Shown: positions 2,595 through 17,510 of the stretch, piece by piece
How the letters are laid out: each line of letters begins with the position of its first letter
Numbering within the stretch: the stretch's first letter is position 1
NCBI GenBank assembly: GCA_003602415.1
Contig: QQSK01000013.1
Location: 89,929 to 153,928, forward strand
Direction: 5' to 3'
Source: Candidatus Poseidoniales archaeon
GTDB taxonomy: Archaea > Thermoplasmatota > Poseidoniia > Poseidoniales > Poseidoniaceae
DNA length: 64,000 bases
Made by a program: the position numbers and the translations under genes
Notes under the pieces: model-generated
The model's input: the letters and a program-made list of their open reading frames with translations, nothing else
The model's database searches: none
Told to the model about the DNA's origin: nothing

Positions 2595-4118
2595 ATGGCA
2601 AGAAAGGGTGGTAGTAGTCAGAAAAGACAGCGTAACCAACAACGTGCAATGTATGATGAACTCGACAAATATCCAGTCATGCCTCCACATGCATTCGCAA
2701 GAATTGTTCGTGATAAGAGGACACTGAATATCATTTACCAGATTATTGAGCCTCCTTTGAATAAGAAGGAACAGGAATGGAGAGATGAATTGCTAGATAT
2801 TTTCATTCGTTCCCTAACCGCTAATATCGAAGAGATTGATGCAGATCCAACCGCTTACCTACGTACTGCTATGGATAAAGTCATCAAGGCTTATGGTATG
2901 AAAATCAACAAGAAATCCAAGTCCAAATTATTCTACTATCTGCGAAGAGACTTGGTAGGATATGGTAAGATGGATGTTCTGATGAATGATGCGAACGTGG
3001 AAGACGTATCTTTAGACGGTACCAATGTCCCAATTTTCGCATATCACAGAAAGTTCGAATCTGTTGAAACAACCTGCGTCTGGGAAACAGATGAGGAATT
3101 AGAATCGTATGTTATTAAACTCGCACAGCGTTGTGGTAAGCACATTTCCGTAGCTGACCCACTACTGGATGCTACGCTGATGGATGGTTCAAGAATTGTC
3201 ATGAAACTTGGTCGTGAAGTTTCGACCAGAGGTTCAGCATTTTGTATTCGAAGATTCAAGGACGACCCGTTCTCGCCTTGTGACATCATCGCTTTCCGAA
3301 CCCTTTCCTCATTGATGGGTGCATACCTTTGGGTTGCGTTCCAGAATGAAGTTCCAATGCTATTCGTAGGTGGTACTGCTTCAGGAAAGACAACCACTCT
3401 GAACGCAATGTGTATTTTCATTCCTTGGCAGATGAAGATTGTAAGTATCGAATCTACCCGTGAAGTAAACATCCCTCAGCCAAACTGGGTCCCAGGTCTA
3501 ACTAGACAGGGATTCGGTGGTGAATCCAACGAAGGAGAGATTGGAGAATTCGAGTTACTCAAAGCGGCTCTTCGTGAGCGACCTGAATACATCATTGTGG
3601 GTGAAATTCGTGGTGCTGAAGCGTATGTTCTGTTCCAGGCAATGGCTACTGGCCACTGTGCATATTCAACTGTGCACGCTGACTCTGTACCTTCACTAGT
3701 ACACAGATTGGAGAACAAACCGATCGATATTCCTCGTGTATTGCTACCTGCTCTGGAAGCATGTGTAATTCAAATTCAGACTCGTATCAATGGACGACGT
3801 GTTAGAAGAAGCAAGCAAATTGTCGAGATTGTTGGAATCGATCCAAACTCTTTGGAAGTAATCACCAATGAGGTATTCCGATGGAATGTTGCAAATGATG
3901 ATTTCATATTCTCTGGAAAATCTTACGTTCTTGAGAAGATCATGGTCAAAATCAACTACAGTCAAGATGAGATGAGAAGGGAATTGAGAACCCGTAAGCG
4001 TATCTTGGAATGGATGGTTTTGAACGATATTAGAAAAGCAGACCAAGTGAGTCAAATTATCACTGAGTATTACGTAAGACCTCATGAGATTTTGGCTCGT
4101 GTAGATGGTCTACGTTGA
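2595..4118 (+). CDS. Type IV pilus / archaellum-like assembly ATPase (VirB11/TadA/ArlI family)
   Basis: GGTASGKTT, LLKAALRERPEYIIVGEIRG, AMATGH, STVHA motifs. Confidence 0.92.
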   Translation: MARKGGSSQKRQRNQQRAMYDELDKYPVMPPHAFARIVRDKRTLNIIYQIIEPPLNKKEQEWRDELLDIFIRSLTANIEEIDADPTAYLRTAMDKVIKAYGMKINKKSKSKLFYYLRRDLVGYGKMDVLMNDANVEDVSLDGTNVPIFAYHRKFESVETTCVWETDEELESYVIKLAQRCGKHISVADPLLDATLMDGSRIVMKLGREVSTRGSAFCIRRFKDDPFSPCDIIAFRTLSSLMGAYLWVAFQNEVPMLFVGGTASGKTTTLNAMCIFIPWQMKIVSIESTREVNIPQPNWVPGLTRQGFGGESNEGEIGEFELLKAALRERPEYIIVGEIRGAEAYVLFQAMATGHCAYSTVHADSVPSLVHRLENKPIDIPRVLLPALEACVIQIQTRINGRRVRRSKQIVEIVGIDPNSLEVITNEVFRWNVANDDFIFSGKSYVLEKIMVKINYSQDEMRRELRTRKRILEWMVLNDIRKADQVSQIITEYYVRPHEILARVDGLR

Positions 4119-4139
4119 TTACGGCTAGGAGGCATACTG

Positions 4140-5159
4140 ATGGAGTTAACCGCATGGCAGAAGATATGTCATCGTATTCTAGGTCGTGCTTTCAAGAAAA
4201 AAGCTCGTAATGACCAGAAATTATCCGATGATTTGGTTAAAGGAAACATGCCTATCATGCCAGAGGTTTACCTTGCCCAAGTATTCGTTACCACAGTCGC
4301 AGTTTCGATAATTTGTGGTATGCTGCTAACAGCGGTATTTTTGCCAGATATTGGATTGATTGCTTGGTATGAATCTAGGCCGGATAGCGCTTATGCTTTG
4401 GCTTGTTTCGAATGGGAGTATTGGAATGCGGATCTTGTAGATGAGACATTAGAAAGTCGAGGTTGCCCATATTTCCAATACATGGAGTTCCCATTCTTTG
4501 CTAAGATTCTGATACCATTTATTCTAGGCTTTGTCGCACCATTTGGGACTTACAAATACCTCAAAGGTTCCGCAGCAAGAGCTGCCAAGTTGCGTGGAGT
4601 CGCTCTTGAAAAATACCTACCATATGCAGCATCTTACACCGCTGCAATGGCGGCTGCAAACGCAACACCTCACAAGATTTTCAAGTCTCTAGCATTGAAC
4701 GGCGACATCTATGGTGAAATCGCTTATGATTCTTCGATGATATATCGGGATGTATCATTACTGGGATTCGATCTTCTAACCGCCATGAAAATGGCAGTAG
4801 ATAGAGCGGCATCTCCATGGATGACAGAATTCTTCCAGGGAATGGTTGGAACATTGACTGCTGGAGGTTCATTGAAACTGTACTTCCTAAATCGTGCTGA
4901 ACACTACATGCGTGAAAATAGAACACGCTTACATGAATTCCTTGAATCTCTTGCTATGCTTGCGGAATCATATGTTGTGGTAGCGGTTGCTATGCCTCTG
5001 TTCCTGATCGTTATGCTGGTCATTATGTTCTGGGTTAGCGGTGCTGGTGCTCAAATGGAAGAGAGCACTCTGTATGCAGTTGTATTGTTGGTACTTCCAA
5101 TGATTCACGCAATGTTCGCATTCATAGTATGGTCGTCTAGTGAAGAGCAAAAAATGTGA
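4140..5159 (+). CDS. Type IV pilus membrane platform protein (TadC/T2SS-F family)
   Basis: EKYLPYAASY...SPWMTEFFQGMVGTLTAGGSL; TM segments; follows the ATPase. Confidence 0.85.
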   Translation: MELTAWQKICHRILGRAFKKKARNDQKLSDDLVKGNMPIMPEVYLAQVFVTTVAVSIICGMLLTAVFLPDIGLIAWYESRPDSAYALACFEWEYWNADLVDETLESRGCPYFQYMEFPFFAKILIPFILGFVAPFGTYKYLKGSAARAAKLRGVALEKYLPYAASYTAAMAAANATPHKIFKSLALNGDIYGEIAYDSSMIYRDVSLLGFDLLTAMKMAVDRAASPWMTEFFQGMVGTLTAGGSLKLYFLNRAEHYMRENRTRLHEFLESLAMLAESYVVVAVAMPLFLIVMLVIMFWVSGAGAQMEESTLYAVVLLVLPMIHAMFAFIVWSSSEEQKM

Positions 5160-5174
5160 TGAGGAGGTGAGAAT

Positions 5175-6689
5175 ATGGCGCGTAAAAAGAAGGAGAAAAT
5201 AATCGTCAAACTCGACCTTCCTAAAGACGATTCAACTCTGACCAAATTGTACGCTATTCTTGCAGTCAGCATTTTCTTAGGTCTCGCATCATTCACATTT
5301 TGGGTTACCAATTCTCACTTTACGACCGCTCCGAACGGTCAACCATTGTTCGTCAACACGGTTTGCAAATATGACCCAAATTACATTCCTACCTTCGTAG
5401 ACAATGAGTCATGTCCTATTCTCAAAGACGAACCTGATATTTTGGTCATGGAGCCTGAAGATAATTGGATGGAGTTTTTACGACTAGGTCAGATGTTTGA
5501 TGTTCCAGGAATGGATGAGAACATTTCAGATGTAAGACCTCCACAGCCTTTGGTTGGAACATGTGATGTTGAGACAGCAGTTCCATCTGATTATTCATTC
5601 ATATTGTATGACCCTGAAGGTAAAGAAATCGCTAGATATAGCGGTAATACATATGCCAATGGCGACAAATGTGAACTGTTCGTTGATAATATGGAAAAAG
5701 GCAATCTCTACCAATTAGTGATCATTTCAGAAGAAGAGGTTCAAGATGCTACTTATCGTTTGGAAATGGATTATTACGATGGTGTTCCTGAAAATATGAA
5801 TAACAAATCTCAATGGATTGGTCCTGAAGTAAATCTTGGTGGGCTATCTCTTAGACCAACCATTTTCTTGAACTTCTTCGGAATTGGTTTCTTCATAACT
5901 TTCTGGCCAGCTTCATTTTACTGGGACAAGGTGAAAGAGAAGACAAACCGTATGGAAGAAAAATTCCCTGATTTCCTAAGGGACCTTGCAGAATATTGGA
6001 AAGGAGGTTTGTCCATGACAGTGGCGGTTCAAACCTTGGCGACGAGTGAATACGGTGCGCTGAATCACGAAGTTAAGAAAATGAGTGACCAATTATCTTG
6101 GGGTGTAGCATTCGGTGATGTTATCGAAATGTTCGCAGCAAGAGTCGGTACGCCTCTAGTTCAACGTGCAATTTCATTGATATCTGAAGCGAATAGAGCT
6201 GGAGGTAAAATTTCGGACATTCTTGTTACTGCGGCAAACGATAGCCGTGAAATCAAGTTCCTAGAAGGTGAACGTAAACGTTCGATTTCGTCTTATATTT
6301 CGGTTATTTGGACTTCATATGGGGTTTTCCTAGGTGTTATTGTAGTTCTAGCTAAGGTCTTCATTCCTGCTATTGCAGGTTCAAACTCCGAACCAGGAGA
6401 TGATGGTGATGCAGGAGGAGGCCAACAATTGGGTAACATGGTTATTCGTAACATTGAGCCCCTGTTCTTCTTGACTATTTTCTACTATGGAGTAACAATG
6501 CAAGCATTAGGAAACGGTTCGATGGCAGGTCTTATGGCAACGGGTCGCTTTACAAGTGGAATGAAGCACTCTGGATTGATGATTCTAATGGCAATTCTTT
6601 GTTTCAACATCATTGTATTCTCTCCTGATTTGATTGGAATTACAACATTACCTGCCCTCAAACCGGCAGCAGGAACATTCTCACCTTGA
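5175..6689 (+). CDS. Second TadC/T2SS-F family platform protein with large extracellular insertion
   Basis: MEEKFPDFLRDLAE...YGALNHEVKKM...EANRAGGKISDIL. Confidence 0.88.
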   Translation: MARKKKEKIIVKLDLPKDDSTLTKLYAILAVSIFLGLASFTFWVTNSHFTTAPNGQPLFVNTVCKYDPNYIPTFVDNESCPILKDEPDILVMEPEDNWMEFLRLGQMFDVPGMDENISDVRPPQPLVGTCDVETAVPSDYSFILYDPEGKEIARYSGNTYANGDKCELFVDNMEKGNLYQLVIISEEEVQDATYRLEMDYYDGVPENMNNKSQWIGPEVNLGGLSLRPTIFLNFFGIGFFITFWPASFYWDKVKEKTNRMEEKFPDFLRDLAEYWKGGLSMTVAVQTLATSEYGALNHEVKKMSDQLSWGVAFGDVIEMFAARVGTPLVQRAISLISEANRAGGKISDILVTAANDSREIKFLEGERKRSISSYISVIWTSYGVFLGVIVVLAKVFIPAIAGSNSEPGDDGDAGGGQQLGNMVIRNIEPLFFLTIFYYGVTMQALGNGSMAGLMATGRFTSGMKHSGLMILMAILCFNIIVFSPDLIGITTLPALKPAAGTFSP

Positions 6690-9760: not shown

Positions 9761-10552
9761 ATGAGTGTTTCATTCAGTGACATGGGTCATGGAGTACGTT
9801 TGGTTCGTTTTTCAGGCCAATCGGCTACCCAGTCGTTCTCAAGAGCATTCTTGCCGGAGATTGCTAAAGCTATAAATTCGGGTTTATCTGATTCTGAAGT
9901 CAAAGCGATGGTGCTTACCGGGGAAGGCAAGTTTTTCTCAGCAGGCGCAGATATCTCAGCATTTCAAAAATCGATAGATGATGGAGATAGTGTAGAATTG
10001 ATTAGAGAGTTAACAGATATTCTTCATCCGTTACTAATCAAGATGAGAACTTCGAAAACCATCATAGTTGCAGCCCTAAATGGTGCTTCAGCAGGGGGCG
10101 GTCTTGGATTAGCACTTGCATGTGATGCACGGGTTGCCAGTTCGCAAGGCAGAATGGCAGCTTCATATTCAGGGATTGGTCTTTCTCCAGATGGAGGCAC
10201 AACCTGGCTGTTGCCAAGACTTGTTGGTGAACAAGTTGCAAGGAAATTTTTCTTTGAAAATCAAATATGGAGTGCAGATGAAGCGTGCAAACTTGGAGCA
10301 ATAGACGAAGTAGTCAGTGAAGAATCTCTAATCGACAGGGCTATCGAAATTGCGAACAACTGGTCACGGTGGGGAAGTCATACTAAAGAGGCGACTAAGC
10401 ATCTATTATTGGCACAAAATGTGAATGACTTTGAAACTCATTTGAAACACGAACAAACGCTGATTGAAGCGGCAGGAACAACTGCTGCTTTTGCTGAAGG
10501 AGTGGATGCATTCCTGAACAAACGCAAGCCTGATTTTTCAAACGATAGGTGA
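9761..10552 (+). CDS. Enoyl-CoA hydratase/isomerase (PaaG-like crotonase)
   Basis: FFSAGADI, GGGLGLALACD, GLSPDGGTTWLLPRLVG (Asp motif of the PaaG type). Confidence 0.85.
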   Translation: MSVSFSDMGHGVRLVRFSGQSATQSFSRAFLPEIAKAINSGLSDSEVKAMVLTGEGKFFSAGADISAFQKSIDDGDSVELIRELTDILHPLLIKMRTSKTIIVAALNGASAGGGLGLALACDARVASSQGRMAASYSGIGLSPDGGTTWLLPRLVGEQVARKFFFENQIWSADEACKLGAIDEVVSEESLIDRAIEIANNWSRWGSHTKEATKHLLLAQNVNDFETHLKHEQTLIEAAGTTAAFAEGVDAFLNKRKPDFSNDR

Positions 10553-11115
10553 TCTACATAGCAAGGAAATGCGGCATTTGTAGACAGGAAGGGCATGACC
10601 GAAGGTCTTGTCCACAACCAAAAAAAGCCTCAAACAACGGCCCTTTGGTTGTCGAATTAATTTGGATTTTCCTTCTGATTACTTGGGTCTTCATCCTATT
10701 CCCACTTTCAATAATGCCTCAAGGTTTCATAATCATAATGTTCATTTCATTGGCCACTAGGTCGGGTTTGATTCGAATTTATGCAAAATTCAGACCTAAT
10801 TGGAGAGAAACCGACCCAACAGGAGATGATTTGACCGAAGCCCTTCGTAAAATAGGAGATGATTTACCTTCTATTCCAAATCCTAAACAAATTGCTGCCC
10901 AAGGATTTTACAATCTCAAAACCGATGAACGTATTCAGCAAGGTATTGGCAAAATCACGGAAGAACTCAAGGAATTGGATGAAGAAATGACTGAGCAAGA
11001 ATGGTATCGCAAGAATCGTGATGCTATACTGTTCGTTTTAGGAACTGGAGTCTTCATACTATTACTATCAATATCGATAATTTTGATACTTTTGTTGGAC
11101 TACTTGTCTTTATGA
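10549..11115 (+). CDS. Hypothetical membrane protein with an N-terminal CCHC zinc knuckle
   Basis: CGICRQEGHDRRSC followed by 3 TM segments. Confidence 0.65.
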   Translation: MIYIARKCGICRQEGHDRRSCPQPKKASNNGPLVVELIWIFLLITWVFILFPLSIMPQGFIIIMFISLATRSGLIRIYAKFRPNWRETDPTGDDLTEALRKIGDDLPSIPNPKQIAAQGFYNLKTDERIQQGIGKITEELKELDEEMTEQEWYRKNRDAILFVLGTGVFILLLSISIILILLLDYLSL

Positions 11116-11688
11116 TTACCAAGGGAACTTAGCAGACCACATAATCAGGTCATTGAGTATAACTTGGATTCCAAGGAAAATAGAGCCAAGAAGCATCAGT
11201 CCTGCCCCGTCTACTCCATCTTGCCAAGCTCCATATGCAAGGAGTCCAAACATGATGTTGCCTATCGATGCTAAAGCTAGAATTCCAATTACTAAGAAAG
11301 GAGTCCAAGCATAGTCATTGTTGATATGCATTCTAGTGCTATCAATCCAGAACATGGATGGAATCAAGAACATTGCATAGGCAAAAAGAAGCCTTCGAGC
11401 ACCGTTGCCATCAGATTCTCCCCATGGCCATCTTAGTGATTCAAGTACGGAGATTTCAATTTGGAATAATGCAACCCACCAATACATCAAAAATCCAATT
11501 GCTGCTAAGAACATGAATGGTACAATGTAGGTGATCCAAGAACCGGGTATTCCGCCCCACAATGCTGTCTTATCATCCATTTTGGATAATGCCAAAGCAT
11601 AACTTACCAAGACTAAAGGTCCTGCGATGAATGTGAATATCCTAATCATTTCACGGCTTACTTCCATGATAACCTGTCGCCGATTCAC
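11116..11688 (-). CDS. Hypothetical membrane protein
   Basis: About 5 TM segments; the true start may be a downstream ATG. Confidence 0.7.
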   Translation of the reverse strand: MNRRQVIMEVSREMIRIFTFIAGPLVLVSYALALSKMDDKTALWGGIPGSWITYIVPFMFLAAIGFLMYWWVALFQIEISVLESLRWPWGESDGNGARRLLFAYAMFLIPSMFWIDSTRMHINNDYAWTPFLVIGILALASIGNIMFGLLAYGAWQDGVDGAGLMLLGSIFLGIQVILNDLIMWSAKFPW

Positions 11689-11720
11689 TTCTTAATGGGT
11701 TGTTATTTTCTTGTGCTATT

Positions 11721-12656
11721 TTATTGAATTGTGACTTCTGTGTTACCTGCCAGAGTATCTTCCTCTCTTACGCCAAATCTTGTTATCTCGATTTCACAGG
11801 ATACAGAGCAGATGTCAACACCGTTTTCTGTTAGTGTTGCAATTTCCCCTTCTTCCCAAACGGCATAATATACATCCACGCCAGAGAAGGTAATCATACA
11901 GTCAGATTCCCCCCCAGTGTCGCACTGGTGTGTCTGATTATTCACAGTCAATTCTACCCAGAAGCCAAAGTATCCCTCTGAAACATACCAGTCGATTTCT
12001 CCGTGGAACTCATCGATTTCAATAGTCATGAGGTTGTCAGTTACAGATGCAGAAACACTATCCGAATGGTCTTGAGCTAGATATGTTGCATTCCAAGCAT
12101 CGCCAGGGTGTGCTCCGCTTGGGTCTGCGAATACCCAAGTACAGAAATCTGGGTACTCGATTGAAAGGAGAGTAGAGTTAATTGTTTCATTATCTGAAAA
12201 CGCTCCTAGTCTGTGGTATACATGGCATTCAGTAGGTTTATCGTCGTACGATATACCTGCACTAGTTCCATTTTCATCTATCCATTCTTCATAAACTTCC
12301 CCAAGGAACAACAAGTCTCCAACTATGTGGTAATTTGAGTAAATATAGTGCATGACAGACCATTGAGGATAATTCACGTGCTCAATAAGTTCTGAGTTTT
12401 CTGCAGTCCAACAATAACCTGAGATCTGAACATCTTGATAGGAACCAGTTTTTTCTAAGTTAGCATGAATGTGTATTTGGTTAGGTGTCAGGTCGGGGTC
12501 CGTATACTTGGTCCATGTTCCAATCAAATCTTGATCTACAGTACCTCCAGCACATGGCGAGTTCGAACTACTGTTATCTGAATCGTCATCACCTATGCAT
12601 CCAGATAGTGATGCTAGAATCAATGTTGCAATGATTAAACATATTCGCGATTTCAC
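11721..12656 (-). CDS. Secreted acidic lipoprotein-like protein
   Basis: GTG start; ICLIIATLILASLSGC lipobox-like signal; acidic, with Cys pairs. Confidence 0.7.
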   Translation of the reverse strand: MKSRICLIIATLILASLSGCIGDDDSDNSSSNSPCAGGTVDQDLIGTWTKYTDPDLTPNQIHIHANLEKTGSYQDVQISGYCWTAENSELIEHVNYPQWSVMHYIYSNYHIVGDLLFLGEVYEEWIDENGTSAGISYDDKPTECHVYHRLGAFSDNETINSTLLSIEYPDFCTWVFADPSGAHPGDAWNATYLAQDHSDSVSASVTDNLMTIEIDEFHGEIDWYVSEGYFGFWVELTVNNQTHQCDTGGESDCMITFSGVDVYYAVWEEGEIATLTENGVDICSVSCEIEITRFGVREEDTLAGNTEVTIQ

Positions 12657-12862
12657 AGTTTGACGATAACCCTCAGGCTCATAATCATGGTGTAAAATGG
12701 GATAACATTGTTTCAAATGATACAGATAAAACAAAAATCGGGACAAAATTTTAACAAACTGCAAATTTTGCTTTTTTATTGTATAAAATTAACTGTAAAA
12801 TAGTGAAAAAGTAACAAAAAACCGAATATTTGTAATTTATTATGAAATTAAAATAACAAACA

Positions 12863-13131
12863 TGTAGGGGATGTCCGACTCTAAAAATGACTTACTAGAG
12901 GAATTCAAGTCCAAAAATGATAGAAAACACCGAAATCTTTTTACGTGATGGCACCCTCAGGTATCATGCAGCGGAGAAATGGTGGTACCATGCAAATAGG
13001 AATTTTCACTAGGTTGGGTCGACATCGCAGTCGAGTTCGATCTTATGCACACTAACTATTGCCCCTGCAACTTTACAAATTGCCATCTCAATTCGAGATG
13101 TTATAGTCAAAGCGACTACTTGTCGCTAGAC
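12863..13131 (+). ncRNA. Candidate structured RNA upstream of the tRNA pair
   Basis: Long-range pairings TGTAGGGG/CCCCTGCA and GATGTC(C)GACTC/GGGTCGACATC; local hairpins CATCTC/GAGATG and AGCGAC/GTCGCT; strand uncertain. Confidence 0.35.
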
Positions 13132-13143
13132 AATCAAACCAAT

Positions 13144-13215
13144 GGGGGTATGGTGTAGTGGATAGCATAAGTGGCTACGAACCACTTGACCTCGGTTCGA
13201 ATCCGAGTACCCTCG
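13144..13215 (+). tRNA. tRNA-Arg (anticodon ACG)
   Basis: Full cloverleaf: GGGGGTA/TACCCTC, D arm GTGT/GCAT with GGATA loop, AGTGG-CT ACG AA-CCACT, CTCGG-TTCGAAT-CCGAG, G73. Confidence 0.9.
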
Positions 13216-13232
13216 CTGGTTTGATATTCAAT

Positions 13233-13307
13233 CAGGGTATATTGTAGAGGATATCAGGACAGACTGCGAAGTTGTCCACCTGGGTTCGAATCCCAGTACC
13301 CTGGCCA
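13233..13307 (+). tRNA. Atypical tRNA-Arg (anticodon GCG) with encoded CCA; possibly non-canonical or a pseudo-tRNA
   Basis: Perfect acceptor CAGGGTA/TACCCTG + G + CCA; perfect T arm CTGGG-TTCGAAT-CCCAG; weak D stem; A31.G39 mismatch. Confidence 0.7.
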
Positions 13308-13325
13308 ATTCAACAAGGTGATAAT

Positions 13326-13766
13326 ATGAAAATGAAAATAGAAATACAAAACAAAAAACAAGCGTGCAAAATAGACGAAGAGACCGTCTCGATAAACGGA
13401 ATTGGTCCATTTTGTGAACACCCTAGAAAAGAAAATTGCTGGATATACAACGGCAGAATGCCAACTTCAAATTGTTGGATATTCATCAACGGCAACAAAG
13501 TTGAGATTCACAACGTGATAGTGTACAATCCGGCAATCAGGAAATTAGGACATGGCTCAGCTATGATTTCTGATATTAGGAAAGCATTTCCAGAATCTCA
13601 TATTTGGGTAGATACCTGGAATTGCACAAGACCTTTCTGGCAAAAAATGCAACAGCAAGGATTCATTGATTCAATCGCCAATGATTACTCCTGGCCATGT
13701 ATCAACACAACATGTAGGATTTGTCATCCAAACAGAAGCGAATCCAGAAGGAGGGTTTTCCAATGA
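13326..13766 (+). CDS. GNAT-family N-acyltransferase with Cys-rich C-terminus
   Basis: AGGTGA SD; HNVIVYNPAIRKLGHGSAMI (R-x-x-G-x-G motif A), PFWQKM; C-x4-C-x2-C tail. Confidence 0.75.
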   Translation: MKMKIEIQNKKQACKIDEETVSINGIGPFCEHPRKENCWIYNGRMPTSNCWIFINGNKVEIHNVIVYNPAIRKLGHGSAMISDIRKAFPESHIWVDTWNCTRPFWQKMQQQGFIDSIANDYSWPCINTTCRICHPNRSESRRRVFQ

Positions 13767-14527
13767 ATAAGGAGTTTGATGGTTGGGAAAACATGGATTG
13801 GAACATTGAGATTGATACATTAGAATTCGATTTAATGGCAATAAAATCTCACAACAAATCTAATCCGGATGTTGGGAAAAGATGGACAGAGTGGCCTAAA
13901 GACATGATTGGTCTTATGCTTCTGCCGCTGGGATATCAACCCTCAAAATGGGATAAAGAGTCTCCACTGACTGAAAAAGAGGAATCAGATTTGAAGCAGA
14001 AATGGATTGATTTTGCCCAATTCGTCTATGAAAATGAGTCGATATCTCTGAAGGAGAATACATTTACAATTGATGGAAAATACGGCTCTAAGTTCTCTTT
14101 CGATGCGAGTATGGAATTTTCGATTTGGCTTCCACCAAACACTCTGGAAAGATATGGCCCTTCACTTAGAGCCATTAGAAACGGTGCCAGAAGAAAGAGC
14201 AATCTTGGCGTACATATGGAGTACCTAGAAGCATCTCAGGCAACTTGGAAGATAGATACTGGAACGACCGATGACGGGTTAGGATTTTGCGATTTCCCAC
14301 CACACGTCAAAGGTTTAGATCTCAAGCAGTATGAAGGATGGTCAACATTTTTTTATCCTTCTAATACAACATTTCCTGAAAATCTGACCGTTCTGATTGA
14401 TTTGTTGATTACAGATTATCAGATTTGGGAAATTCTGCATGAACAAGAGGTTAAGAGAAGAAAAGCGAATGATGAATGGAATAAGAAATGGCCCAATGGA
14501 AGGCCAGATGATTGGATGTATTTGTGA
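13763..14527 (+). CDS. Hypothetical protein
   Basis: ATGA-coupled to the GNAT gene; 254 codons, Trp-rich. Confidence 0.7.
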   Translation: MNKEFDGWENMDWNIEIDTLEFDLMAIKSHNKSNPDVGKRWTEWPKDMIGLMLLPLGYQPSKWDKESPLTEKEESDLKQKWIDFAQFVYENESISLKENTFTIDGKYGSKFSFDASMEFSIWLPPNTLERYGPSLRAIRNGARRKSNLGVHMEYLEASQATWKIDTGTTDDGLGFCDFPPHVKGLDLKQYEGWSTFFYPSNTTFPENLTVLIDLLITDYQIWEILHEQEVKRRKANDEWNKKWPNGRPDDWMYL

Positions 14528-14537
14528 GGTGAAAAGA

Positions 14538-14762
14538 ATGAGTAAAGAAGAAAATAAGAAAACAAGAGAAGCTGAGAATTTGATAAAATTGATTACGGAT
14601 TTTTTCAAACTTCAAAATCAGTATAACCATTTCAGAATTGAGGAATACAAAGAATGGAATGAGAAAGAATGTGACTGCCCAATATGCGTGGACTACACTG
14701 TTCAATTTTGTGAAGAGGAATCTCCAGACTATTGCGATGGCTTCAGGGAGGAATGGAATTGA
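14538..14762 (+). CDS. Small acidic Cys-rich hypothetical protein
   Basis: GAGGTGA SD; MSKEENKK...CDCPICVDY..C..C; fills the operon gap. Confidence 0.6.
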   Translation: MSKEENKKTREAENLIKLITDFFKLQNQYNHFRIEEYKEWNEKECDCPICVDYTVQFCEEESPDYCDGFREEWN

Positions 14763-15304
14763 TTTCTAATTGGAAGCCAAATGCAAATGCACCATTGTGG
14801 GATGAAGAATCAAATTCTGAACCCAGAGGTCCATTTTTCCAAGAACTTGACATTAAACACATCAAGCAGATTGGACCTTCTTGCGTCCCAACCACATTGG
14901 CAATGCTTGCAAGGAGTACTGGTGCTGATGTAGGTCCTGATGATTTCAAAGGAATAATCAACTCTCAATCACCACACACATGGTCTAACTCATTACATCA
15001 ATACGGGTTACAACTTGCTTACTGTAACCAAGATTTGAGAAGATTGGAGTATTATATTGATGAGTTGGTAGAGCATGATGATTTGTTTCTGTTGTGTTTC
15101 TATTCGGTCGACCCTCCTTCAGACTCTGACATAAATGGCAAGTTATGTACTGCGCATATTGTAACTTTGCACAGAGACAAAATCATTGATACTGCAAAAA
15201 GTGGTAGTTTTGGAGTAAGTATTGCTGAGGATTATCCCAGACTATCTAGGCAGACAAAGAGGATATTCAGAGTGGTGCCTTTTGGTCACCCTAGGAGAGT
15301 TTAG
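14753..15304 (+). CDS. Papain-fold C39-like cysteine peptidase
   Basis: KQIGPSCVPTTLAML (Q-x4-C) ... AHIVTL ... IIDT; Cys-His-Asp order. Confidence 0.6.
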   Translation: MELISNWKPNANAPLWDEESNSEPRGPFFQELDIKHIKQIGPSCVPTTLAMLARSTGADVGPDDFKGIINSQSPHTWSNSLHQYGLQLAYCNQDLRRLEYYIDELVEHDDLFLLCFYSVDPPSDSDINGKLCTAHIVTLHRDKIIDTAKSGSFGVSIAEDYPRLSRQTKRIFRVVPFGHPRRV

Positions 15305-15312
15305 GTGATTTT

Positions 15313-16629
15313 ATGATGTGGAAAAATGGAGACCTATTTCCTTCAGTACCTTTTCCTAAGGTAGAGGATAGACCACTACTAGTATATCATCCAGCGCCGG
15401 ATATGAATTATGTTAATTCATGGTCAATAATGGTTGAAAACGATCAACCATTCATCCTATTTTGCGATGATATGGGGCCTAGATATCCCGATGATTTACC
15501 ATTCTTGGAAACTAGCTTGAGGATGGAATATTTTGCTAGAATTGCTAATCCATTAATTGGTGGTAGGGCATACAGGCACCCAGAACTTGGTTATCAGAAC
15601 ATGTTGGTTCAAAGGCAGAAAGATGCAAATTTGGGAATTGAGGATTTACCTTTGCTCGATATCCTATATGTCGATTGGCTTGAGCCCTTCATCGAAAAGA
15701 GAGGTAGGAATTCTTATTCTGATATTATTCCTAAACTCGCTACACACGTAAGGGATGGCGGATTGATTATACTGGACAGAAAACATGCAGAAACAATTCC
15801 AGAATGGTTCACTTATTCACAAATCATTCTTAGCACAAAAAAGGATGTCTGCATTGAGCATATTGGTAGAGGAGAATGGTTGATTCCATATGTTGATTTG
15901 GAGAATGTTAGAGATGTGGAGGCTGAAATCTTCGTTGTAAAAAACTTGAATCAAGAAAAAAAGAACATGGACGATTTTCTCGCCTCTTTGATGCATGAAA
16001 GGAGATTGAAGCCTAATGAATTATTGAAAACAAGAAACAAATTACCTCTAAGGTGGCCCGGTCATCCCGATAAGGATTCATGGATGGAGAGATACATGGA
16101 ATACTTGGATAGACCAGAGTCCGGTGAACCATACTTGCCTTGTCCATACAATAATTCCTGGTCATACAAGGAATACACCACTTGGGTCCAGTCATTGATT
16201 GATAGGCCGGAAGTACTGAGGCCGATTCCAAGAAAAGAAAGAACGCTTGATTTGGGCATCAAAGTAACATTGGTTCACGGTGATATTAGGGATCACCTTG
16301 ACTGGTTATATGTTGAAGATGCCAGCTTAATTCTTAGAGAGAAATTGATGAGTGATTGTTTGTCTAATTGGTGTTGGCTTCAATACAAAGCTGTAGACTT
16401 GCAACCCAAGTGGAATAGGCCGTTAATCACCAAACTGAAATGGTCGGGCAAGAATTCAACTTCAAATCTGACATTGAAACTTTTAGATTTAGCAAAGAGT
16501 TCAGTAGTTGCTACTATCGTTCATGGAGATGGGAGTTTGAAGCAACTGAAAAGGCAGTTAAAGAAATATCAAGGAGAAGTAGAACATCTAATCATTTTTC
16601 ACAAAGATGCTAGCGACTATTCAGATTAA
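15313..16629 (+). CDS. Hypothetical protein, possibly with a methyltransferase-like N-terminal fold
   Basis: AGGTGA SD; LDILYVD...LATHVRDGGLIILD resembles class I MTase motifs; VTLVHGDI near the C-terminus. Confidence 0.55.
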   Translation: MMWKNGDLFPSVPFPKVEDRPLLVYHPAPDMNYVNSWSIMVENDQPFILFCDDMGPRYPDDLPFLETSLRMEYFARIANPLIGGRAYRHPELGYQNMLVQRQKDANLGIEDLPLLDILYVDWLEPFIEKRGRNSYSDIIPKLATHVRDGGLIILDRKHAETIPEWFTYSQIILSTKKDVCIEHIGRGEWLIPYVDLENVRDVEAEIFVVKNLNQEKKNMDDFLASLMHERRLKPNELLKTRNKLPLRWPGHPDKDSWMERYMEYLDRPESGEPYLPCPYNNSWSYKEYTTWVQSLIDRPEVLRPIPRKERTLDLGIKVTLVHGDIRDHLDWLYVEDASLILREKLMSDCLSNWCWLQYKAVDLQPKWNRPLITKLKWSGKNSTSNLTLKLLDLAKSSVVATIVHGDGSLKQLKRQLKKYQGEVEHLIIFHKDASDYSD

Positions 16630-17510
16630 GGTAAATCTGTTTCTTCAGCAGAACCAGATGACCAATCGTAGATTCCCTTGCCGGATTTCTTACCTAGCCT
16701 ACCTTCGGCAACCAGTTTCTCAAGAAGTGGGTGAGGTGTGTAAGCATCATCATTGAATGATTTCTTTAGATTTAGAAGAATATCTCGACGTACATCTAGA
16801 CCTACTAGGTCGGTTAGAGCGAGTGGACCCATTGGATGCTTGTATCCCAATACCATCGCAGTGTCGATATCCTTGGCACTAGCAACGCCATCTGCAAGCA
16901 TACGTATTGCTTCGTTTCCAAGTACTACCCCGAGTCGAGAGGTTGCAAAACCAGGCACATCCTTGACTAGGATTGTTGTTTTACCCATAGCCTCACCTGC
17001 AGATTGTGCGGCCGCTATAGTTTCTTCAGAACAAGAATCATGTTTTACCAATTCCAAGAGTTTCATAATCGGGACCGGATTAAAGAAATGCATACCAATT
17101 ACCATTTCCGGCTTACCTGATGCAGCAGCGATATCTGCAATCGATAGGGAAGAGGTATTTGTTCCTAGAATACAATCATCTTTGGTCATAGTTCCAAGTT
17201 CTGCGAAAATTTTGTGCTTCAAATCAGGGATTTCAGGTACTGCTTCAATTACAAGATCAGCATCAGCGACAGCCTCATCCATTTGAGACACTGCGTGTAG
17301 ATTTGAACTCCATTCAGCCTTTTGTTCAGGGGTGGTTTTTCCTCTTGCAATGCCTTTGTCCCAGAATGCATCGATAGCATTCATTCCACGTTCAAGTCCT
17401 TCAGGAAATGCATCGAAAAGGTTGGTCTTCCATCCTGCTTGAGCACAAACCTGTGCTATGCCTGCACCCATTGTGCCCGCACCAATAACTGCAACAGTAT
17501 CAATTCCCAT
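16626..17510 (-). CDS. 3-hydroxyacyl-CoA dehydrogenase (PaaH/Hbd family)
   Basis: GAGTMGAGIA, IEAVPE, TNTSS, GMHFFNP, PMGP. Confidence 0.95.
   Translation of the reverse strand: MGIDTVAVIGAGTMGAGIAQVCAQAGWKTNLFDAFPEGLERGMNAIDAFWDKGIARGKTTPEQKAEWSSNLHAVSQMDEAVADADLVIEAVPEIPDLKHKIFAELGTMTKDDCILGTNTSSLSIADIAAASGKPEMVIGMHFFNPVPIMKLLELVKHDSCSEETIAAAQSAGEAMGKTTILVKDVPGFATSRLGVVLGNEAIRMLADGVASAKDIDTAMVLGYKHPMGPLALTDLVGLDVRRDILLNLKKSFNDDAYTPHPLLEKLVAEGRLGKKSGKGIYDWSSGSAEETDLP

Follow-up and report, generated by a model that had tools for sequence, protein, structure and literature searches.

This work concerns a gene for tRNA-Arg with the anticodon ACG, located at positions 13144–13215 of a 64,000-nucleotide (nt) stretch of DNA from a Candidatus Poseidoniales archaeon (assembly GCA_003602415.1, contig QQSK01000013.1), and this whole stretch is referred to as the window. 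Judged from its sequence relationships, the gene represents one of the states of a spare tRNA-Arg paralogue, in which the wobble base (position 34) switches between U and A. The gene heads a cassette that also contains a second tRNA-Arg gene and five protein-coding genes free of CGN arginine codons, and it is preceded by a short leader open reading frame (ORF) rich in CGN codons. As far as sequence comparison goes, the module is found only in Poseidoniales and its gene set is previously undescribed. We propose with moderate confidence that it is a working surveillance and back-up operon for CGN decoding, where A34 would be used unmodified and much as U34 is used. The initial annotation of the window reported the tRNA-Arg(ACG) gene, while the second tRNA gene, the CGN-rich leader ORF, and the CGN-free downstream genes were absent from it.

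The tRNA-Arg(ACG) gene and its relatives

The genome that holds the window (1.89 Mb, 43% G+C, 89% complete, with the window on contig 5 of 22) is archaeal and belongs to Marine Group II (MGII)/Poseidoniales. It encodes ribosomal protein L15e, whose family matched only the four archaeal genomes among the control genomes, and it holds a partial archaeal small-subunit rRNA (658.7 bits).

The gene on the forward strand was called tRNA-Arg(acg) by ARAGORN (13144–13216, anticodon at 13177–13179) and was matched at 13144–13215 by Rfam RF00005 with 60.6 bits (E 1.2e-10, gathering score 29). It has A37 and the discriminator G73 (13215), and no CCA is encoded. Its D-loop, AGTGGATA, places an A at position 20 in the numbering assigned in this analysis. 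The clean tRNA-Arg cloverleaf, the D-loop A, and the G73 that had been described from the letters alone are thus all borne out. The identity elements of tRNA-Arg are C35 and G36 of the anticodon and A20 of the D-loop. The sequence of the cassette tRNA-Arg(ACG) carries all three, and among 65 distinct copies of the first tRNA of the cassette C35 and G36 never vary and the D-loop A hardly does. The cloverleaf of those 65 orthologues is paired in 99.1% of cells and exhibits compensatory double changes in 11 of 21 pairs. None of 500 shuffles matched the observed pairing and covariation, and in slid controls no more than 53.6% of cells are paired. The first-tRNA molecule is under structural selection.

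The contigs of three DNA runs from three separate studies (X3, X13, and X16) were compared with the window. Each run covers 12864–14600 in a single piece, and no alternative letter occurs within 12869–13513, where position 13177 is A. The A at 13177 in assemblies of three independent studies is neither an assembly error nor the product of a misjoin, which settles the concern that the reads might show G at 13177 or that the region might be misassembled. Short contigs of the same three runs agree with the window over 13142–13176, in the 5' half of the tRNA, beyond which they read TCG and a different anticodon stem, so relatives that carry the UCG form co-occur in the same water samples.

The tRNA pair was found by DNA search in 12 of the 36 other species of the genus. 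The first tRNA has the anticodon ACG in six of those loci and TCG in five, while the twelfth locus, at a contig end, holds an ACG tRNA alone. Across the order, matches were found in 97 of 401 sampled genomes, representing 10 of 26 genera and both large families. All matches fetched across Poseidoniales gave 105 copies of the first tRNA from 102 genomes, where position 34 is T in 89 copies, A in 16, and C or G in none. The ACG form is present in 16 of the 102 genomes, in 6 of 10 genera. A census of 80 loci was ascertained through the linked cassette peptidase, independently of the tRNA, and these loci carry TCG (62), ACG (7), only another tRNA upstream (3), or none (8). Upstream tRNAs are accordingly present in 72 of the 80 loci, and seven of the other eight have too little upstream sequence to judge. 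Other genera likewise have one or more tRNAs in front of the same cassette genes, and ACG is the sole tRNA in some intact cassettes (G226, G260, G173, and G374).

The tree of the first tRNA, built with column 34 left out, requires nine changes at position 34 by parsimony, and at least four of them are forced by well-supported branches. The peptidase tree was also considered for counting the switches and was set aside for the tRNA tree, as it holds only four ACG loci. Within the genus, three anticodon-arm variants are each found with A and with T at position 34, and the ACG copies have acceptor and T-stem variants in common with TCG copies of the same genus. Positions 32, 34, and 37 of the cassette tRNAs differ between lineages. 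The nearest relatives are archaeal tRNA-Arg(UCG) orthologues that occupy this place in related genomes, and the ACG gene is thus a home-grown variant of a spare tRNA-Arg(UCG) rather than an import.

A bacterial- or eukaryotic-type tRNA acquired by horizontal transfer or from a virus had been suggested earlier, and the findings in this work contradict it. The closest relatives differ at position 34 and share lineage-specific stems with the ACG copies. The profile of the cassette peptidase against IMG/VR viral contigs gave six pattern matches and no confirmed relative, and the tRNA pair had no blastn match among 50,697 phage records. A search of 185,579 species genomes gave 113 relatives of the peptidase; the best 80 were inspected by title, and all of these are titled MGII, Poseidoniales, or unplaced archaeon. 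Passages of a paper on Poseidoniales viruses mention tRNAs for host matching only (PMC11706807).

The near-absence of A34 tRNAs from archaea, as assumed in the initial annotation, agrees with the literature. Such genes are very rare according to part of a preprint that counted three among 10,517 tRNAs of 220 archaea (10.64898/2026.05.15.725136), and they are called absent from archaea in a passage of another paper (PMC11066159). The genome has 37 tRNA genes, with no further A34 tRNA among them, and the normal tRNA-Arg(tcg), (gcg), (tct), and (cct) genes lie on other contigs.

The second cassette gene, an extra copy of tRNA-Arg(GCG) at 13233–13307 on the forward strand, begins in tandem 17 nt 3' of tRNA-Arg(ACG). 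It was called by ARAGORN and Rfam (45.9 bits), its CCA is encoded, and its anticodon stem contains one A.G and one G.U pair. No other tRNA-like RNA was detected within 12700–16800, either by ARAGORN or by Rfam at E up to 5. Of the 72 protein-ascertained loci with an upstream tRNA, 56 have the GCG tRNA alongside the first one. The cassette pair has a D-loop of 8 nt and 52–55% G+C, versus 10 nt and 57–67% in the four normal tRNA-Arg genes. Normal UCG and GCG genes are each present in the cassette-bearing genomes G066, G080, and G091. In the cassette-bearing G062, a complete genome, the normal GCG gene is present and the UCG gene was found only as a split match (G062:C1:31780–31876; L253/L256), in two pieces with about 24 nt between them and without an ARAGORN call; this normal tRNA-Arg(UCG) may hold an intron at an unusual position.

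Several loci exhibit other arrangements. In L160 and L161 (G298 and G070, genus g14), tRNA-Arg(ACG) is at the head and a tRNA-Arg(TCG) lies between the peptidase gene and the large last gene, and the leader is a short ORF ending in KRRRS. In L205 (2510–2680), a G+C-rich tRNA, called as Ile(GAU), stands in place of the first tRNA, and the usual tRNA-Arg(GCG) comes after it. In L064 (G006 contig 14, 1808–1882), a tRNA-Arg(ACG) of the same family is found in a different context; it adjoins a CGN-rich gene (8 CGN and 1 AGR, the latter denoting AGA or AGG) whose product is distantly related to the last cassette protein (23% identity).

The proteins that could modify A34 were searched for in the genome. 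The only proteins with a cytidine deaminase fold are RibD (TIGR00326, 277 bits) and a 160-amino-acid (aa) dCMP-deaminase-like protein encoded beside folC, and the matches of PF00383 and PF14437 are these same two. The TadA model NF008113 (NCBIfam) passed its cut-off in none of 38 genomes of the genus, which are 54–93% complete, and all of its matches were the RibD domain. A search with PF02137 gave no match and is uninformative, as the controls were likewise without a match. No deaminase fold was seen among the cassette proteins whose structures were compared (the peptidase and the 438-aa protein). As these genomes are incomplete, the evidence for the absence of TadA, which the initial annotation had also assumed, is strong but not absolute, and with no TadA the A34 of the cassette tRNA most likely stays unmodified. 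Parts of the literature describe how such a tRNA could work. A non-deaminated tRNA-Arg(ACG) is able to read all CGN codons, and in some Mollicutes a single tRNA-Arg(UCG) does so, as stated in passages of PMC3711424. For unmodified A34, pairing is reported to be good with U, modest with C, and weak with A and G (PMC11066159).

The CGN-rich leader and the avoidance of CGN codons

A leader ORF of 21 codons (MQIGIFTRLGRHRSRVRSYAH) lies at 12990–13055 on the forward strand, with GGTGG 6–10 nt before its ATG. Its arginine codons are AGG, CGA, CGC, CGA, and CGA, so that four CGN codons are found in the second half, and this CGN stretch lies inside a hairpin conserved across the genus. Leader-type ORFs were defined by a Shine-Dalgarno (SD) word, an ATG, 12–35 codons, at least three CGN codons, and a position at most 220 nt upstream of the first tRNA. 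They are present in 71 of 101 loci, in 9 of 10 genera, versus 18 of 4251 control windows that were taken from the same loci with SD and ATG required. An antisense control had been tried and was replaced by these windows; it was uninformative because CpG-rich DNA gives CGN on both strands. Across loci, the arginine codons of the leaders are 283 CGN versus 71 AGR. The leader peptides are unalike between genera except for the C-terminal cluster of arginines encoded by CGN. A short ORF with a cluster of candidate regulatory codons directly upstream is the arrangement of a leader-peptide attenuator. By eye, no consistent link was found between CGG in the leader and U34 or A34.

Two short hairpins (13084–13100 and 13111–13127, forward strand) lie between the leader and the tRNA in the minimum free energy fold (z -2.2). 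Pairing-preserving stem changes were seen by eye in the alignments of 13084–13127, and these hairpins could serve processing or attenuation.

The five cassette genes contain no CGN among 60 arginine codons, all of which are AGA or AGG, while CGN makes up 43.7% genome-wide. Only 4 of the 1137 ORFs of the genome with at least eight arginine codons are free of CGN, and these are four of the five cassette genes; the remaining one has only three arginine codons. The same is observed across 10 genera, where the four larger cassette genes contain 39 CGN versus 2264 AGR codons in 239 homologues. These counts are limited to aligned stretches, as ORF starts that run upstream into other frames inflate the figures (1.5–11% unrestricted), and they exclude L001, which duplicates the window, and L064, whose context differs. 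Relatives of the Cys-rich protein, the one with three arginine codons, at 34 other loci have 2 CGN versus 52 AGR codons. Flanking genes of the same loci have 22–62% CGN.

The depletion is confined to the four CGN codons (ratios 0.005–0.12), and NCG codons are not depleted. All 62 CG dinucleotides of the five cassette genes of the window are out of frame. As only in-frame CGN is depleted, selection acts at decoding and not on the dinucleotide. The arginine content of the cassette proteins is normal (5.6% versus 4.6% genome-wide), so the signal would be the state of the CGN-reading tRNAs and not the supply of arginine.

Cassette proteins and chromosomal site

The five genes 3' of the tRNAs are on the same strand and are tightly packed or overlapping. 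The first (13326–13766) encodes a GNAT-like protein of 146 aa with a C-terminal C-x4-C-x2-C-H cluster (0 CGN, 10 AGR). It starts 18 nt after the second tRNA, and the gap holds the SD sequence AAGGTGA. Among the 21 members of its family, Acetyltransf_7 matches eight and Acetyltransf_1 matches seven (best E 2.2e-4), while the protein of the window itself has no match. The GNAT motif is R/Q-x-x-G-x-G/A, and R72-x2-G75-x-G77 is conserved in the family; look-alikes in the Atlas score 0.94–0.96. The GNAT-like gene was not detected in many g13 and g14 cassettes. The second gene (13763–14527; 0 CGN, 9 AGR) overlaps the stop of the GNAT-like gene and encodes a 254-aa protein without a recognisable family or a usable match in the Atlas. 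The third (14538–14762; 0 CGN, 3 AGR) encodes the Cys-rich protein of 74 aa and overlaps the start of the peptidase gene.

The fourth gene (14753–15304; 0 CGN, 11 AGR) encodes a putative papain/C39-like cysteine peptidase of 183 aa, where Q39, C44, H135, and D146 are invariant in 27 sequences. Its model (mean predicted local distance difference test score, pLDDT, 86.8) matches the peptidase domains of PCAT1 and ComA in Foldseek (E 1.3e-4 to 5e-4, TM score 0.57–0.66). The sequence itself gave only E 0.18 with Pfam Peptidase_C39_2 and no match in a PDB sequence profile search. The model thus predicts a papain-like fold with the catalytic residues in order, the same Gln, Cys, His, and Asp order as in PCAT1 and ComA; unlike those, the cassette protein stands alone without an ABC transporter.

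The fifth gene (o15313; 15313–16629; 0 CGN, 27 AGR) encodes a 438-aa protein with a predicted N-terminal class I methyltransferase fold and a macro-like region at residues 305–438. Its model has a pLDDT of 87.7, and residues 1–213 match the methyltransferase fold (Foldseek E 6e-5; VIA Z up to 8.7, 5ftw). A PDB sequence profile search with o15313 gave only matches with E above 1. No match was found for any of the seven island ORFs with Pfam and PHROGs, or for any of the four cassette proteins scanned with PADLOC.

The cassette site is constant across the genus, between ECH/o11116 and HCDH, and the flanks are syntenic, from aldehyde dehydrogenase and enoyl-CoA hydratase to 3-hydroxyacyl-CoA dehydrogenase and EamA. 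The genomes G009, G018, and G031, which are without the tRNAs, keep these flanks and lack the cassette. The cassette is thus a variable insert. No integrase was seen in it, and no PHROGs or Pfam match and no viral relative point to a mobile or viral origin. Decaying cassettes were observed at L019 (G033, ACG) and L024 (G016 contig 47, TCG), where stops occur in the GNAT-like and following genes and the tRNAs are intact.

Three ORFs at 10549–12764, between the hydratase gene and the leader, have no family match, vary in presence between species, and have normal CGN usage (36–46%). One combines a zinc-knuckle-like N-terminus with apparently membrane-spanning hydrophobic stretches, another is hydrophobic over its whole length and probably encodes a membrane protein, and in the remaining one a cysteine comes after an N-terminal hydrophobic stretch, which is lipoprotein-like by eye. 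Further upstream, at 2595–6689, ATPase and membrane-platform genes of the type IV pilus/archaellum kind (T2SSE and T2SSF) precede the flanking fatty-acid/phenylacetate-type genes.

Proposed working and alternative explanations

The CGN-rich leader, the spare tRNAs that read CGN, and the CGN-free genes together point to a module that, on failure of CGN decoding, would be expressed and translated and would restore this decoding. This module context favours a translational role for the cassette tRNA. We further suggest, tentatively, that the module is a safeguard by which Poseidoniales monitor one codon box, with the leader as CGN sensor, a spare tRNA-Arg with U34 or unmodified A34, and enzymes whose genes avoid CGN, acting against attack on or damage of tRNA-Arg. 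Ribosomes on the leader ORF would gauge the reading of CGN in the cell. Failure of the normal tRNA-Arg(UCG/GCG) through damage, depletion, or under-modification would stall them on the leader and raise downstream expression. The spare tRNAs, having a different body, would then restore CGN reading, and the five cassette proteins could still be made, as their messages need no CGN decoding, and would deal with the cause. Unmodified A34 would read the CGN box broadly, roughly like unmodified U34, and such near-equivalence would explain why only U and A interchange. Alternatively, A34 may be driven as an escape variant of the anticodon loop, as has been proposed for phage tRNAs in part of PMC10264068.

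The module was compared with known systems. Another ACG system is yeast mitochondrial tRNA-Arg(ACG). In the Mollicutes, as described in parts of Yokobori et al. (2013; PMC3711424), an ACG anticodon is likewise used without TadA, single changes in the anticodon convert the ACG, UCG, and GCG forms into one another, and one tRNA suffices for the whole CGN box. Unlike in the Mollicutes, the host here is an archaeon with a full normal set of tRNA-Arg, and the A/U switch recurs in a spare, cassette-borne paralogue. The leader resembles the bacterial attenuators hisL, trpL, and pheL, as covered in portions of PMC3082878 and PMC4046918, in being a short SD-led ORF with regulatory codons just upstream, of which only the codon cluster is conserved between lineages. 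It differs from them in that the codons mark one box (CGN, not AGR) and not an amino acid, that the host is archaeal, that tRNA genes and CGN-purged enzymes and not biosynthetic genes lie downstream, and that no clear terminator/antiterminator pair was found. The spare tRNAs also resemble phage replacement tRNAs that counter anticodon nucleases, which sections of PMC10264068, PMC11555353, and PMC11464382 describe as extra tRNAs with host specificity and a different body or anticodon loop. Unlike these, the cassette tRNAs are cellular and lie at a syntenic chromosomal site, where a sensor-like leader and codon-purged genes are linked to them, and no attacking nuclease is known. A non-exhaustive literature search found nothing on A34 tRNAs of Poseidoniales, on leader-peptide control of tRNA genes in archaea, or on CGN-free operons.

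Several findings weigh against the surveillance and back-up proposal. Small SD-led ORFs with at least four CGN codons are not rare in the genome (13 of 724), so the case for the leader rests on its conserved position across genera. Within the genus the leader is conserved even at wobble positions, and it may act as an RNA structure instead of, or besides, a translated sensor. No oligo-T terminator or clear alternative pairing was found around the leader hairpins. The leader of the window is mostly CGA, and unmodified A34 is reported to pair weakly with A. The functions of the cassette proteins are suggested by folds only: by eye the 438-aa protein has no GxGxG motif, none of its 24 family members has a Pfam methyltransferase match, and its macro-like region resembles PARP14 macro 3 (4abk; Z 7.7, rmsd 3.1, 113 aligned residues) and macroH2A (Z 7.4) with Z scores of 7–8, a range that is common by chance according to the tool. 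About three quarters of the sampled genomes do without the cassette, so it is dispensable. In the RNA run X20, contig pieces cover only 13743–13774, 14113–14263, and 14291–14438 and none the tRNAs, and these pieces indicate neither expression nor silence.

Among the alternatives, it is unlikely that the module itself shuts off CGN decoding, as a toxin/immunity, abortive infection, or addiction system whose own tRNAs are resistant and whose own genes are CGN-free to escape. One module protein would then inactivate the normal CGN-reading tRNAs or cut messages at CGN codons in the A-site. The frame-specific purge of CGN, the distinct body of the spare tRNAs (shorter D-loop and lower G+C), and the patchy distribution of the cassette are consistent with such a system. 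Toxins that acetylate tRNAs or act as proteases can likewise have GNAT and papain-like folds, and the PDB neighbours of the peptidase include a papain-like toxin/immunity pair and CdiA-CT toxins. However, the four proteins scanned have no PADLOC or PHROGs match, the cassette occupies one constant chromosomal site in the genus and no integrase was seen, the normal tRNA-Arg genes are intact in cassette-bearing genomes, and a CGN-rich leader before the tRNAs fits a failure sensor better than a self-inflicted block.

It is rather improbable that an archaeal deaminase that has escaped recognition turns A34 into inosine, which would let the tRNA read CGU, CGC, and CGA as in bacteria and eukaryotes. 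Archaea make m1I57, so that some tRNA adenosine deaminase exists, and the genome does encode the dCMP-deaminase-like protein, whose specificity is unknown. By eye, 10 of 12 examined ACG loci with a leader have no CGG in it and only CGA, CGC, and CGT, each of which inosine can read. However, the ACG lineages G095 and G382 do carry CGG in the leader, no TadA/ADAT-type protein was found in the 38 genomes of the genus, where all matches were RibD, and the cassette proteins compared have no deaminase fold. The repeated interchange of U and A would also be easier if the two are nearly equivalent than if each switch needed an enzyme.

We consider it improbable that ACG is a tolerated, neutral or slightly harmful mutation in a redundant tRNA gene that drifts to loss. 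The normal CGN tRNAs are present, which makes the spare copy redundant in ordinary growth, decaying cassettes occur with ACG (G033) as well as TCG (G016 contig 47), and ACG is a minority state (7 of 69 protein-ascertained loci with the first tRNA). Drift would however not be expected to leave only A and T at position 34 in 105 copies, or the rest of the molecule paired to the extent described, with compensatory changes. ACG also persists across several species in six genera, including alone in intact cassettes, and the cassette, leader, and ORFs of the window are all intact.

A non-ribosomal role is very unlikely. Here the tRNAs would donate arginine to the GNAT-like protein as an aminoacyl-tRNA transferase, a leader peptide would be cleaved off by the C39-like peptidase, and tailoring of the product would fall to the methyltransferase-fold protein. 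Known aminoacyl-tRNA transferases have the GNAT fold and C39 domains process peptide leaders, and the dedicated tRNAs do adjoin a GNAT-like protein and a C39-like peptidase. This role accounts neither for the CGN-free genes nor for the CGN-rich leader, no precursor peptide was identified, and many g13 and g14 cassettes have no detected GNAT-like gene. Import of a bacterial- or eukaryotic-type tRNA-Arg(ACG), horizontally or by a virus, is hardly credible: the cassette is a variable insert of lower G+C (0.39 versus 0.43), but UCG orthologues occupy the same position across the order, viral contigs and phage records gave no match, and the best 80 of the 113 peptidase relatives are all in MGII genomes.

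Archaea are the textbook domain without A34 tRNAs, and here an intact, conserved tRNA-Arg with A34 has arisen repeatedly from U34 in a lineage where no TadA was found. Poseidoniales are among the most abundant archaeal groups of the ocean and would offer a natural test of unmodified A34 decoding. The leader, the spare tRNAs, and the CGN-free genes form a coherent signature across 10 genera. If the surveillance and back-up proposal is true, these cells can keep watch over the decoding of one codon box and insure it, and marine archaea would face an unseen pressure on tRNA-Arg from nucleases, viruses, or modification stress. The leader would then be the first candidate for ribosome-mediated leader control, and the first leader-peptide sensor, in archaea. 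The cassette tRNAs would then also be without precedent as a cellular counterpart of phage replacement tRNAs and as a natural, recurrent use of A34 tRNAs in archaea.

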